64,000 nt of DNA, taken from assembly GCA_035652355.1 (NCBI GenBank), contig DASRDY010000170.1, positions 9,037 to 73,036 of the forward strand, written 5' to 3'. Of the stretch, positions 27,103 through 35,204 are shown one piece after another. Each line of letters starts with the position of its first letter. The stretch's first letter is position 1. This DNA is from Blastocatellia bacterium (lineage in GTDB: Bacteria > Acidobacteriota > Blastocatellia > DASRDY01). Both the position numbers and the translations under genes were made by a program. Below the pieces are notes generated by a model. The model was not told the origin of the DNA, did not search any database, and worked only from the letters and a program-made list of their open reading frames with translations.

Positions 27103-28650
27103 TTATGCAGCAACCTTCTCTTTATCTTTCTCTTTATCTTTTCTTGATGCAAAATACGCTACCAGATCGCATACCAATGCGGAAACCGTTCGAGGTGCGG
27201 TCCGTTGTGGGCTACCAGAGGGAACATCTCGGCGTTCTGCGACCATCTGAAATGTATAATTCAGCTTAAATAAGACCGTTTTTCCGTTGGCAGTTGAGTT
27301 CGAGGTAACGATTTTGATCATTTCACGTTTTTCGTCGGGATTTGCCCATTCATAGCTTAAACAAGCGTTGTTTACAAGTTCGACAAAGTGCTCTACTCGT
27401 TCAAGTGCAGACTGTTCTCCGGCGTTTATGTTCTTCAGCCTTTCTTTTATCTCAGTCTCTTGCTCAACCAACTCATTCTTTTTGTAGATATAGGTTTCCT
27501 TTTCGAGCATTCCGTCAATATATAGGTCGGCAAGCTTAGACTGTCTTATTTGCAATTGGTCTAACTGTAATTGGAATCCCCTCGTTTGGCTCTGCACGAG
27601 CTCAGAGACATTCCCGTAGGCCTTTTTCAATTCGGTCCTGATTTGCTCGTTCTCCCTCTCGCTGAATTCTAGGGCGCCTAATAGTTCTTTGAATTGAGCT
27701 TCAATGATATCCTCGCGCAGGGGTTTCTGAGAACAGCCTTTGGTATGGCAGCGGTAATACCGGTAGCCTTTCTGCTTTTCGCCAATTAGTTTTGTTTGAC
27801 ACTGAGAACACGTGATGAGAGTTCGCCAAAGGAAATGATGCTTCTGCTTCTTGTCATTCCGTTTGCCGGAGCACACATCCTGAACCTGATCAAACAATGA
27901 TTTAGGGATGAGCGGCTCGTGTTGCCCTTGGAATAGTTCGCCTCTGATCTTAATTCGGATCAAGCCGCAATAGAACGGGTTGTGCAGCAGCGTTGCCAGA
28001 CCGTGTCGGGTAATGAACTTGCCGGACTTGGTTCGAAGACCTATTTCAGTTAGGTACTCTTTTAGGCTGTCTAACCCCCAATCACCAGTTGCATAGAGTT
28101 CAAAGGCACGGCGCACGAGAGGTCCTCGCACAGAATCAATTTTTTTGGGCTGGCCTTTACCGCAATCGATATAACCAATGGGTGCAGGACGGGGGTAGAG
28201 CCCTTGTTTGAGCCGTCCGTAAAAGCCCTTCTTTGTCTCTTCTCGCAAATTTCTGATGTAGTCAGCGGCAACTACCGCTTGAATATCAGCAGAGAGCCTT
28301 CCCCCTCTCGACTGAAGATCAATGCTTTCATTGGCAAAGTGAATTTCGATACCATTGTCAATCAATTCCTGGAGATGTACCCAATCCTGAAGGTTTCGAG
28401 CGCTGCGGTCGATCTTGTGGATGATGACGCCCTTGGCTTTTCCAGCTTTGAGCGCTTTCAGCATATCATTAAAAACTGGACGTCCGAGCTTGGCCGCGGT
28501 TTCTTTCTCTTCATATTCAGCAATAATGGTAAACCCTGACCGCTCAGCATAGCGATTAATGGCACCCTGTTGTTCAGACAGCGAGGTACCAGTCTGACCT
28601 TGCCGCAATGTCGAGACACGAATATAGGAAAAGTAAGGGTTGAGAATCAT
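27103..28650 (-). CDS. Large serine recombinase (resolvase/invertase catalytic domain + recombinase domain + zinc ribbon + coiled coil)
   Basis: The N-terminal catalytic motif is YIRVSTLRQ (nucleophilic Ser). The Zn ribbon reads CSQCQTKL...YRCHTKGC. The C-terminal tail is K/E-rich. Confidence 0.85.
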   Translation of the reverse strand: MILNPYFSYIRVSTLRQGQTGTSLSEQQGAINRYAERSGFTIIAEYEEKETAAKLGRPVFNDMLKALKAGKAKGVIIHKIDRSARNLQDWVHLQELIDNGIEIHFANESIDLQSRGGRLSADIQAVVAADYIRNLREETKKGFYGRLKQGLYPRPAPIGYIDCGKGQPKKIDSVRGPLVRRAFELYATGDWGLDSLKEYLTEIGLRTKSGKFITRHGLATLLHNPFYCGLIRIKIRGELFQGQHEPLIPKSLFDQVQDVCSGKRNDKKQKHHFLWRTLITCSQCQTKLIGEKQKGYRYYRCHTKGCSQKPLREDIIEAQFKELLGALEFSERENEQIRTELKKAYGNVSELVQSQTRGFQLQLDQLQIRQSKLADLYIDGMLEKETYIYKKNELVEQETEIKERLKNINAGEQSALERVEHFVELVNNACLSYEWANPDEKREMIKIVTSNSTANGKTVLFKLNYTFQMVAERRDVPSGSPQRTAPRTVSALVCDLVAYFASRKDKEKDKEKVAA

Positions 28651-28885
28651 AAATAGACGCGGAGATTGATAATCTTCGGTGGGAAATATTTGATTGCGGC
28701 CTCATGTTAGGGCCGCTTGCGCGATCCTGTCAAATCAGTCAACCGATGGCTATTGCGTTCAAAAATGCGCCTGACCAGATCGACATAACGAGAGAAGTAA
28801 TAGGCTGCTTCCTGTTGCTGTTCCGGCGTGAGATCCGGATAGAGATCAACAAAGGCGTTCCGTTGTTTATTTTTGTCCATAGTTT

Positions 28886-29539
28886 TCAAAACAATACTTG
28901 CTGCTGAATGTGGATTACCGGTTGTTCCAAGTCCACAGTTTCTCGTGCGCACACGAGTCCCACTGCCACGGCATCAAACAAGTGGCCGTAATGGCGCATC
29001 CGGCCTTTTGATTGACCGTCAACATATTGAGAAAGCTCTGGGTAATGATTGCATAACGCTAGCATGGTCAGTTGCTTTGTTGCATCTGGCGACTGGCAGA
29101 TGAGCCTACGAACGAGTGCCAAATCATATTCGTAAATGACAAGCCCAAAGTCTATTGCCATCATCCGTATTTCATCAGTTACAACCGAAACCATAGCCTC
29201 GCTCCGTTGTAAGAGAGCGATTCGTTCGATGGCTAAAACGCTTGGTTCGAATTCATTAATCAAATGCTCGATTATATAAGCAATGGACTGCAGAAGAGCT
29301 CTCCTGGGTCGTTGGGGTCTGACACTCTTTACAGCGTAATACGCGAGATGCCCAGCGGCGAAGACAGCAACACCTAAGTCTCGTGTGCTCGGATCAATTG
29401 CCAATATCGTGTTTGGTGGGTTGCGAGTTGTTTTCAGATTTGGACTCATGTGAGTAACGTTTGACCAAGTAAAAAAACACTGCGGCACGTGACTTTCTGA
29501 TGCGGTCGTTCGGGATGCTACGGGCTTCCCCGTAGGCAC
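28886..29539 (-). CDS. Hypothetical protein
   Basis: ORF only. It lies in a co-oriented cluster with the recombinase and the HTH genes. Confidence 0.3.
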   Translation of the reverse strand: MPTGKPVASRTTASESHVPQCFFTWSNVTHMSPNLKTTRNPPNTILAIDPSTRDLGVAVFAAGHLAYYAVKSVRPQRPRRALLQSIAYIIEHLINEFEPSVLAIERIALLQRSEAMVSVVTDEIRMMAIDFGLVIYEYDLALVRRLICQSPDATKQLTMLALCNHYPELSQYVDGQSKGRMRHYGHLFDAVAVGLVCARETVDLEQPVIHIQQQVLF

Positions 29540-29812
29540 GCTGGATGATGTGCGAAGGATACTTCTTGCAATAAATCAGATAGAGGCTGAGACGATCAGT
29601 GTCAGAGAAGGTGTCGGCGATCGTATAAGCAAGCCATTCTCGTTTTGATTTAGGGTGAAATGTAGTCATCTGTTAAAGTTGCACTTAGTATTTAATGAAT
29701 GCTGTTAGAAGGTTGTTGTTAGAAATCAGTGGAAAGGTAATTTTGCGCGTAGATATGCGGAGTTTTCTCTTCCGGGAACGCGGGCTTCCGTAAGATTTTG
29801 CCAGTCTGTCTG

Positions 29813-34800: not shown

Positions 34801-34890
34801 TTTACGGGTCTTGCTGAGCCGGTGTTCTATTCGGGCTCGTCGTCTGGTCCATTACGTTTTATCGAAACGATTCAATGTTATTCTTTCTGA
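31819..34890 (+). CDS. Fusion protein. It has a TraD/VirD4-like coupling ATPase core plus a C-terminal replication-relaxation-like (winged-helix) domain, and is a putative single-protein mobilization factor.
   Basis: Walker A MLGKSGCGKSTLIQN is followed by VIDQHGTL. Walker B is YLYVDEFQHM. A TraG-D_C-like RKYKLHLTLANQ is present. The last about 250 aa carry KILHFLLLAQYLSTPQILELC and a WEIDMGTE motif reminiscent of the Replic_Relax family. The domain assignment was made by eye. Confidence 0.55.
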   Translation: MSTEFHALAAMGASKQLARHPVRLEPQKTAVHYDRKKAATRYLRVVPSLAEETTPYMTEQFVRHLRALREPASFEAFNLAGKVQLQFVVQNEDIKLITDGLTTSHRHTHTELLEADPLYRWYKSAKERKRSGQIALEYHFRDYYIPPPFFLPILAIDSFQGSDPLEAMFAVMQELSDDELAIYQLLLIPCRTNWHKAARDLLGQRQIQVNPIALGDGNERVHTKEVHPEIPEHELKFITARAFAKIDADKPFFACALRCAVFTNAAARAASLLQRLEASLNNFVSGPRRLRFLDRIDYYNQGLPKDDHFYLLFNRVAFRPGFLLNSGEIASLCHLPFPSVLSKDYKLDAVQRSYAAPEYLTENGEFIGENTHRGQNRPVYISGRLQNRHCYMLGKSGCGKSTLIQNLVLEHLRKGDGFGVIDQHGTLIADQILPFIPESRVGDVVLLDAGDFEHPLAFNLLAHSGSKQEKEHIRTDLLNFFEELLGDKLGVNIEHLLNFSLATLLTRKDSTLADIERLMIDDQFRENVLRDISDERMLRFWEMEFPVLMKTSVTTITNKLSPLLLPDSTVQPMLTTRENKLDFLRMMDEGKIFLCNLSHGKIGKRTAQLLGRLIISRIQISAMMRQASPALPDWYLYVDEFQHMTSPSMKDILSGARKYKLHLTLANQVMGDIPQDILKNVFNASTLLFFNSDLPQEQHFIEQVLAKKFTTEEVGQLRVGEAFAKIENNVFNVRTLPPPKVPTAGYVSEIVRQSRIRYGVQTTQKEDTMFGRRPSVPKAAPVKARPKDAEPQVARREEKRRIELAMAQPKQFSSNQEKILHFLLLAQYLSTPQILELCYRHIDNPNSRKSTASQDLKKLIEKKLIKEMDDRKPKIYFIGSRANPSKHNLAVRDVFTKLVRSEFEIHSVAFSDSLGGLKPDLIAEFKTVDNSLVRTHWEIDMGTENYGELIDKAERYARKEKASIYFVFATSARRERARPLLSHYASCYAVTLADFTGLAEPVFYSGSSSGPLRFIETIQCYSF

Positions 34891-35170
34891 TTAACTTAGG
34901 CCAGCAACTGATTCACCACACAAAGGTTATAAGCGTTTTATCGCTTAACTGGGTTAGCCCTTACTTAACTTGTATGTTAAGCGCAAAAGTCGCTTAGAAC
35001 CTGCCTCTTCTCGTCTCCTTGCGAAATTGTTCAGCGTATTGTTCACCGATTGTTCACTGAACAATTACTGAACAATTCTATGCCGAATACCCTGTAAAAC
35101 CATGATTCCATCCAATCTAAATGCACGAAGAATCAATAAGATAGCTATCCTAAAGTTCCCTACGAACCAA

Positions 35171-35204
35171 AAGGTCGCATGTTCGAGTCATGCCGGGCGC
35201 ACCA
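35171..35204 (+). other. Partial tRNA 3' fragment (T-arm GCATG-TTCGAGT-CATGC + acceptor strand CGGGCGC-A-CCA) with no matching 5' half. It is a candidate att core or a relic of integration into a tRNA.
   Basis: The T-stem is perfectly complementary, the T-loop TTCGAGT is canonical and CCA is encoded. No GCGCCCG 5' acceptor strand occurs within 100 nt upstream. Confidence 0.4.

Follow-up and report, generated by a model that had tools for sequence, protein, structure and literature searches.

A probable 40.5-kb tyrosine-integrase island in tRNA-Arg(ACG) of a Blastocatellia bacterium, with a serine recombinase operon and an ATPase/relaxase-like fusion gene at one end

Gene layout of the locus

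A stretch of 64,000 nt from a Blastocatellia (Acidobacteriota) genome (contig DASRDY010000170.1; this whole stretch is called the window) was analysed for a group of mobile-element genes at 27.1-35.2 kb that ends in a tRNA-like piece. The preliminary description of this segment had proposed a compact integrative mobilizable element (IME) of about 8 kb, with a large serine recombinase (LSR) gene at one end and a partial tRNA at the other. The evidence presented here makes it likely that the segment belongs to a larger unit, a tyrosine-integrase island of 40,486 bp in tRNA-Arg(ACG), and forms its attR-proximal core. The window was extended with L010, a locus of the same contig (ENA ERZ27279688 k141_2373499) that adds 8.3 kb on its left, to give a joined sequence of 72 kb. 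The gene layout was as first described: the genes from the serine recombinase to an XRE-family regulator are co-oriented on the minus strand (27103-30758), with matching open reading frames (ORFs). The pair of plus-strand genes shares a single base within TAATG, which fits the suggested translational coupling, and the hydropathy of the first agreed with its description as a membrane protein. The features are as follows, with the related loci L005, L022 and L024 described further below.

L010 16858-18075: 405-aa tyrosine integrase, adjoining tRNA-Arg on the island side (Phage_int_SAM_3, PF14659; Phage_integrase, PF00589)
L010 16588-16851: HTH_17 excisionase-type protein, beside the integrase gene (HTH_17)
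1-27102: inner island part between both 46-bp repeat copies, with cargo and a second mobility module
24943-25026, minus strand: 3'-end remnant of a second LSR gene, about 30 codons (tblastn to LSR residues 478-508, E 0.001)
27103-28650, minus strand: LSR, 515 aa, last gene of the operon (Pfam Resolvase, Recombinase, Zn_ribbon_recom; phrog_95 integrase)
28707-28952, minus strand: small conserved ORF (57 aa in the public annotation), whose positional counterparts in L022 and L024 have 48-66% identity
28886-29539, minus strand: predicted RuvC-like nuclease (Pfam RuvC at 24.1 bits, cut-off 22.2; phrog_159; syntenic in L005 and L022)
29394-29669, minus strand: conserved 91-aa protein, p91 (same position in L005, 38% identity, and in L022, 70%)
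29813-30190, minus strand: HTH_36/DnaD-N-like winged-helix protein (HTH_36, 36 bits; PHROG DnaD-like and replication-initiation; 45-56% identity in L005 and L022)
30207-30758, minus strand: XRE-family regulator, first gene of the minus-strand operon (Pfam HTH_3; 50% identity in L022)
30759-31141: putative control region between the divergent operons, with three direct repeats (30934-30988) and short inverted repeats
31142-31819, plus strand: 225-aa membrane protein, two predicted transmembrane helices (hydropathy)
31819-34890, plus strand: 1023-aa fusion protein (Pfam, AlphaFold2 with Foldseek, relatives)
34922-35002: nested inverted repeats after the ATPase gene (arms 34924-34935/34991-35002 and 34937-34949/34976-34988), a terminator or candidate origin of transfer (oriT)
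35026-35077: five phased copies of ATTGTTCA/TGAACAAT, putative arm-type integrase-binding sites (P arm)
35160-35205, plus strand: attR core, a 46-nt copy of the tRNA-Arg(ACG) 3' part (100% identity to -5326 to -5281)

The tRNA-Arg scar and the limits of the island

The tRNA 3' fragment was real, and its extent had been set too short. In place of 34 nt of T-arm and acceptor, 46 nt (35160-35205) were identical to the 3' part of a real tRNA-Arg(ACG), taking in the anticodon loop CTACGAA, the 3' strand of the anticodon stem, the variable loop, the T-arm, the 3' strand of the acceptor, A73, CCA and one further base. The piece gave a single match in the 64-kb window, with 0 expected from 100 shuffles. 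No full tRNA was called at this position by ARAGORN or Rfam, and the piece is therefore a fragment. The search for a matching full tRNA, which the preliminary description had recommended, led to an intact tRNA-Arg(ACG) 40,486 bp upstream (ARAGORN; plus strand, L010 18120-18196, window coordinates -5359 to -5283). This gene begins the island, about 5.3 kb left of window position 1.

The two sequences form a perfect direct repeat of 46 bp (-5326 to -5281, within the intact tRNA, and 35160-35205), 40,486 bp apart. Self-comparison of the joined 72 kb returned the core in exactly two copies, and no internal copy, degenerate ones included, was found within the island. Near 27.1 kb neither an intact tRNA nor a second copy of the fragment was detected (ARAGORN, match search and self-comparison). 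The compact unit of about 8 kb was thus not borne out, as the partner tRNA of the fragment lies 40,486 bp away and the unit measures 40.5 kb; nor does the serine recombinase gene mark an element end. The partner tRNA adjoins the tyrosine integrase gene. The sole tRNA found in the window by ARAGORN and Rfam, a tRNA-SeC (50655-50752), was rejected as partner because the sequences differ. Between 34.8 and 37.1 kb, Rfam gave nothing at the gathering threshold and chance-level matches alone at E<=10; a mir-199 match was the palindromic repeat array at 35026-35077.

On the far side of tRNA-Arg (L010 18262-21188), there are a gene for a Xer-like tyrosine recombinase of 292 aa and several small ORFs, which on visual inspection resemble phage genes; one of them is similar to an HNH endonuclease.

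Empty site

Metagenome contigs of JGI were scanned once with a 45-nt core, and seven contigs were returned. In one of these, a soil metagenome contig (L017), an intact tRNA-Arg (2194-2270) is joined directly to a homologue of window 35206-35573. The alignment of L017 2226-2639 with window 35160-35573, core included, had 75.6% identity over 418 nt (E 1e-71); the homology covers the right flank only, the left flank being unlike that of the island's tRNA-Arg. As L017 joins tRNA-Arg to 35206 onward, the stretch from the tRNA to 35205 is inserted DNA when compared with a related organism. Comparative genomics thus provided the empty site that had been suggested as a check, and this site delimits the 40.5-kb unit, not 27.1-35.2 kb. 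With the intact partner tRNA and the empty site, the fragment stands as the mark of a mobile-element integration at a tRNA 3' end. No attP junction was present among the seven contigs carrying the core.

Another contig (L020) has an exact 46-nt copy of the core at 1010-1055 without a tRNA 5' half before it. The translations of its ORFs suggest a high G+C content, and this copy probably marks where an unrelated island, inserted in the same tRNA, ends.

Integrase and repeats inside both ends

The repeat CTGAACAAT occurs five times without mismatch in the 72 kb, each time just inside an island end. Two of the copies, a tandem pair 69-87 nt inward from the tRNA end, fall within the 3' end of the integrase gene; the other three lie at 35026-35076, 84-134 nt ahead of the attR core. 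An 8-mer of the motif behaved in the same way (7 of 10 copies in the 72 kb sit in the two end patches), and the pair ACTGAACAAT(T)ACTGAACAATTCT is common to both ends, almost exactly. The observed clustering suggests that the end repeats serve as arm-type sites for the integrase. The 405-aa enzyme beside tRNA-Arg is the likely catalyst of the insertion. No signal of a decayed tyrosine integrase or xis gene was obtained by tblastn in 34890-37061. The integrase has 22-24% identity to the integrases of related elements and is not orthologous to them, which indicates that integration modules were swapped between relatives.

The stretch that precedes the attR core (35088-35153) has a 76% copy at 35672-35737, 500 nt past attR. 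An extended alignment of this copy scored about 5 standard deviations over shuffles and is gap-rich outside 35672-35737. The copy may be what remains of an earlier integration.

The 1023-aa ATPase/relaxase-like fusion and the membrane protein

An ATPase/relaxase-like fusion had been proposed for the 1023-aa protein, and Pfam, Foldseek, the domains of relatives and a model of the C-terminus agree on it. The architecture comprises an N-terminal domain of unassigned family, an ATPase resembling type IV coupling proteins (T4CPs) and VirB4 (about 360-760), and a winged helix with Replic_Relax (about 810-1000). An AlphaFold2 model from a 14-sequence alignment was confident at residues 40-760, with a helical insert at 467-590. 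Foldseek matched it to VirB4/TrwK (E 1e-17) and to TrwB (1e9s, E 1e-11, TM 0.6 on the target), with further matches to Cag-beta, HerA and the DndH C-domain. A 395-aa T4CP of the same island (1649-2836) shares 35% identity with the ATPase core and exceeds the Pfam cut-offs for TrwB_AAD_bind, T4SS-DNA_transf and TraG-D_C. The 1023-aa protein is itself below these three cut-offs, and relatives are above them; all 10 relatives sampled unite TrwB_AAD_bind, TraG-D_C and Replic_Relax.

Replic_Relax (PF13814) was matched at residues 885-958 (profile 95-174 of 191) with 28.7 bits against a cut-off of 25.3. An exhaustive HMMER search with the C-terminal 234 residues returned 66 relatives, mostly the C-termini of proteins of 800-1270 aa. 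Among 17-41 relatives, H887, R892, P919-D920, E938 and D940 were invariant, and G942-T-E and K952 nearly so. The C-terminal model (pLDDT 87) has a winged helix followed by a nuclease-like alpha-beta-beta-beta-alpha-beta core. Its Foldseek matches were weak (MecI-type winged helices, Bax1, EndoMS, MspI and McrC; E above 0.002), and neither a PDB sequence search nor a word-index search gave matches for this domain. Replic_Relax is the MOB_C relaxase family, of PD-(D/E)XK fold (PMC5357655, PMC3424549, PMC12857230), and the domain is accordingly predicted, from sequence and model, to be a MOB_C-type, PD-(D/E)XK-like nuclease.

No match covering 80% of the fusion protein was found in PLSDB (72,556 plasmid records) or in 50,697 phage records. 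A search for related loci with the ATPase alignment gave one distant match in genome contigs and none in metagenome or viral contigs. The 225-aa membrane protein encoded upstream had no match in Pfam, PHROG or NCBIfam; it may supply a transmembrane anchor to the ATPase.

The serine recombinase operon

The LSR belongs to a very large family (5344 proteins at E<=1e-60), and it is 71% identical to P0093 of the syntenic locus L022. The homology of the window with L022 and L024 ends about 28 nt before the LSR stop codon, and the DNA beyond differs. The remnant at 24943-25026, which translates to ...LIAYFASRKDKEQVAA*, is 83% identical at the nucleotide level to the LSR gene of L022 at its 3' end. 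Such remnants lie on the same strand as the intact gene and downstream of it, at 2.1 kb in the window and at 4.5 kb in L024 (7115-7308), and in both cases unrelated cargo separates the gene from its remnant. This might indicate that the LSR 3' end is a recombination hot spot for cargo. No serine-type attL/attR or empty site was found for a unit bounded by the LSR gene, and the LSR does not explain the integration scar. For the HTH_36 protein, the profile matches make a role as replication initiator or loader possible.

Relatives of the core

Homologues of the ATPase were 40-48% identical across about three quarters of the protein. In loci from metagenome-assembled genomes (MAGs; L003, L005/L006/L007 and L008), the homologue is immediately followed by HTH_17 (as a gene or as a domain), a tyrosine integrase and a tRNA (tRNA-Asn, tRNA-Glu). 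In the metagenome contigs L004 and L011, HTH_17 and an integrase likewise follow the homologue, and the contigs end before any tRNA. L005/L006/L007, which belong to another lineage, also have homologues of the XRE, HTH_36, p91, RuvC-like and LSR proteins (26-45% identity), and their ATPase gene is immediately followed by xis, int and tRNA-Asn. No direct repeat of the tRNA 3' end was found within 14 kb in L003, L005 and L008, so these elements exceed the loci examined.

The closest LSR homologue, P0093, is in another Blastocatellia contig (L022), which has the gene order of the window: the ATPase, then divergently XRE, HTH_36, p90, RuvC, p57 and LSR, with 68% nucleotide identity to window 27131-30960. 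Downstream of its ATPase gene there is a patch of GTTACC repeats (5 of the 11 copies of the locus), and then a 45-nt 3' half of tRNA-Met(CAU) (3696-3740, minus), on the strand of the ATPase gene and 306 nt past it, with a terminator-like hairpin directly after. No intact tRNA was found in the L022 locus, including 3.4 kb beyond its LSR gene. Since the two layouts agree, the order of LSR cassette, ATPase, repeat patch and tRNA 3' half is a family trait, in which the tRNA and the repeat motif differ from one element to the next. The genes at 27.1-34.9 kb are, by sequence comparison, a coherent and conserved mobile-element module that is regularly found beside a tRNA 3' half.

Ubiquitin-like defence genes (Multi_ubiq, ThiF/JAB, E2, BubE) were seen as cargo in L008/L009 (3040-4923) and L024 (7585-10002).

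A broader reading of these loci can be offered only tentatively. Blastocatellia, a Thermodesulfobacteriota MAG and an unclassified MAG would share a family of tRNA islands that combines a tyrosine integrase with the serine recombinase/RuvC-like/HTH_36 cassette and is moved by one soluble MOB_C-relaxase/coupling-ATPase polypeptide, the LSR 3' end being a recurrent swap point for cargo such as pAgo or ubiquitin-like defence systems.

Cargo and surroundings

The features inside the island were as follows.

219-1256: Xer-like tyrosine recombinase
1404-1614: frameshifted DUF433 pseudogene, 76% identical to the intact DUF433 gene beside xis (60% amino acid identity)
1649-2836: 395-aa T4CP (TrwB_AAD_bind, T4SS-DNA_transf)
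9469-15242: DEAD/ResIII helicase (PADLOC PDC-S28, E 1e-104), then SIR2-APAZ-pAgo
24012-24495: small gene pair resembling toxin-antitoxin (by eye)

The three features at 219-2836 make up a second mobility module of the same island. Its T4CP is 45% identical to one on a Sulfitobacter plasmid (NZ_CP081110), on which a serine recombinase 43% identical to that of the window lies 1.3 kb from the T4CP. The helicase and the 1052-aa SIR2-APAZ-short-pAgo fusion (PADLOC pAgo, 1277 bits) form a defence module carried as cargo. Further cargo comprises genes for a SWIM protein, an N4/N6 DNA methylase, and amylase, ROK and YdjC proteins (sugar metabolism). With such mosaic content, a history of accretion is conceivable.

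Beyond the island, two plus-strand parts resembling the 3' part of tRNA-Cys(GCA), with U73 and CCA, lie at 36196-36263 and 43335-43402 (84% over 70 nt), each preceded by a shared 63-nt repeat (35526-35588 / 43258-43322). The window and the adjoining 8.3 kb on the left contain no intact tRNA-Cys. Between the Cys-like parts lie a two-component system and a YVTN beta-propeller gene, and the two parts may delimit a decayed island. Right after the second part, at 43600-44150, overlapping broken minus-strand ORFs look by eye like a transposase pseudogene. The ORFs of 517, 217 and 1020 aa at 37.6-43.1 kb were considered as a second core trio and rejected: they encode the beta-propeller and the two-component system, and the sizes coincide by chance.

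Proposed mechanism

The integration scar, the matching end motifs and the empty site were observed directly. Crossover would have taken place within the 46-bp core, from the anticodon loop to one base beyond CCA, with the 405-aa tyrosine integrase as the likely catalyst, together with the HTH_17 excisionase. The predicted attP junction is ...AAAGTTCC + 46-bp core + TAAACCTCG..., and the predicted attB junction is ...GCGTTTGG + 46-bp core + GTCCTTTATT.... An excised circle would bring together the serine recombinase operon, the ATPase operon, attP, int and xis as a core of about 12 kb, with about 30 kb of cargo attached at the 3' side of the serine recombinase gene. The 1023-aa protein may be a relaxase and a coupling protein in one chain, which the 225-aa protein encoded just upstream would hold at the membrane. 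The XRE protein probably controls the divergent operons, and the HTH_36, RuvC-like and serine recombinase proteins probably act in replication or resolution of the circle, or in cargo exchange. Neither the genes called in L010 and L001 nor the Pfam scans revealed type IV secretion system (T4SS) genes (no VirB4), the ORFs at 15-24 kb of the window being covered by precomputed Pfam alone. The island is therefore probably a mobilizable element, and its transfer would rely on a helper conjugative element.

Weighing of alternative explanations

Several observations weigh against one tyrosine-integrase island with a relaxase-like transfer protein. Neither an excised circle nor a same-strain empty site was seen, and no oriT was identified, the inverted repeats at 34922-35002 being the only candidate. 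The Replic_Relax score is barely over the Pfam cut-off (relatives score 20.8-29.9 bits), and Foldseek gave no significant PDB match for the C-terminal domain; to our knowledge, no MOB_C structure has been solved. The 1023-aa protein is without a transmembrane segment, as are most of its relatives, and so lacks the N-terminal one expected of a coupling protein. The role of the serine recombinase is unexplained by the island model. The island also looks mosaic, with two paralogous T4CP-like ATPases, an Xer-like recombinase, a DUF433 pseudogene copy and a serine recombinase remnant, and may be a merger of elements instead of one unit. One such merger is tandem accretion, in which an older tRNA-Arg element, now the 27-35 kb core, lost its integrase, a second element with the 405-aa integrase inserted into the tRNA that had been restored, and the internal att site disappeared afterwards. 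There is good documentation of accretion among IMEs and integrative conjugative elements (ICEs) (PMC5704250), and the mosaic features just named, including the DUF433 gene with its 76% identical pseudogene copy, would fit it, as would the 76% copy of the P-arm stretch 500 nt past attR. This history nevertheless seems unlikely: even a degenerate internal core copy is absent, the attR-side repeat motif matches that in the 3' end of the integrase gene, and the L022 core again lies beside repeats and a tRNA half, so that its placement looks like design and not accident.

The other explanations concern the genes of the core. An 8.1-kb IME integrated by the LSR, and bounded by its gene (27.1 kb) and the tRNA fragment (35.2 kb), would account for a compact, conserved and self-consistent cassette and for the homology with relatives that stops at the LSR gene 3' end in three contexts. 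It is nonetheless highly improbable. The overlap left by serine integrases measures 2 bp, whereas the repeat here has 46 bp; there is no tRNA or fragment copy near 27.1 kb, and none intact within 3.4 kb past the LSR gene of L022; the sole partner lies 40.5 kb off, beside a tyrosine integrase, to which the like repeat motifs at both island ends also point; and L017, at its empty site, has the tRNA directly before the homologue of 35206 onward. The LSR-to-XRE cassette, with or without the ATPase, could instead be a separate serine recombinase element nested in the tyrosine-integrase island, as the LSR family is far larger than the ATPase family, the Sulfitobacter plasmid has its 43% identical LSR close to a 395-aa T4CP, and the LSR 3'-end remnants suggest turnover there. 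Serine-type att sites could not be defined, however, and the cassette with a T4CP-like ATPase lies beside tRNA/tyrosine-integrase att sites in three independent elements (the window, L022 and L005) with three tRNAs, which makes nesting rather improbable. A defence or DNA-processing role unrelated to conjugative transfer, with the 1023-aa fusion as a HerA/DndH-like translocase joined to a PD-(D/E)XK nuclease, would agree with the Foldseek matches to HerA and the DndH C-domain, weak PADLOC matches to mad8 and HerA, matches of the ATPase core to a PHROG of unknown function and to Bacillus phage proteins, and the other defence genes carried by the island. Such a role was also judged unlikely in view of the fixed place of the gene beside xis/int/att in diverse elements, the excisionase-type HTH_17 that replaces the C-terminus in close relatives, the relatives that exceed the cut-offs of T4CP-specific Pfam domains, and the best annotated plasmid relatives, which are T4SS DNA-binding or coupling proteins.

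Comparison with known systems

As a comparatively verified island (scar, end motifs and empty site), this locus adds to what is known of the Acidobacteria, whose mobile elements are little studied, and gives an example of how such genomes carry a SIR2-APAZ-pAgo defence gene. Its combination of a coupling-like ATPase fused to a MOB_C-type nuclease against the att site, and a serine recombinase kept beside a tyrosine integrase, is unusual; the core parts are known singly, and the combination was not found in limited searches. If the fusion does nick and couple DNA, it would amount to a minimal mobilization device made of a single protein.

Own coupling proteins are typically paired with a MOB_C relaxase in mobilizable plasmids and IMEs, as in CloDF13 with MobB (T4CP) and MobC (relaxase) (PMC7431656, PMC5704250), and streptococcal IMEs carry VirD4 plus MobC (PMC7431656, PMC5704250, PMC5357655). 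The present core resembles such MOB_C1 modules as a non-conjugative element with its own coupling-like ATPase and a Replic_Relax/MOB_C-type nuclease and without its own T4SS. It differs from the CloDF13 and streptococcal modules in that ATPase and nuclease are fused in one 1023-aa chain, which has a large N-terminal domain and no transmembrane segment, with a separate small membrane protein encoded upstream; the sequence similarity of the island domain to MOB_C is marginal. The studied MOB_C relaxase TraX of pAD1 has a winged helix, then a restriction-endonuclease-like catalytic domain (PMC12857230). A winged helix before a nuclease-like domain with conserved acidic residues is likewise predicted here, whereas TraX stands alone and is encoded by a conjugative plasmid.

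The island has the full Resolvase, Recombinase and zinc-ribbon LSR known from serine-recombinase IMEs and ICEs (PMC5357655, PMC5704250), but, unlike in those elements, it is not the enzyme that explains the scar. The island is most like the tyrosine-integrase tRNA islands and IMEs (PMC5704250), with an intact tRNA, int and xis at one end, a tRNA 3' repeat at the other, repeats inside both ends, an empty site in a relative, and mixed cargo with defence genes. Unlike the usual tRNA islands, its core keeps the LSR, the RuvC-like nuclease and the HTH_36 protein, and its transfer gene is at the far end, against attR. It is a fairly ordinary tRNA-linked genomic island with an unusual core gene set.

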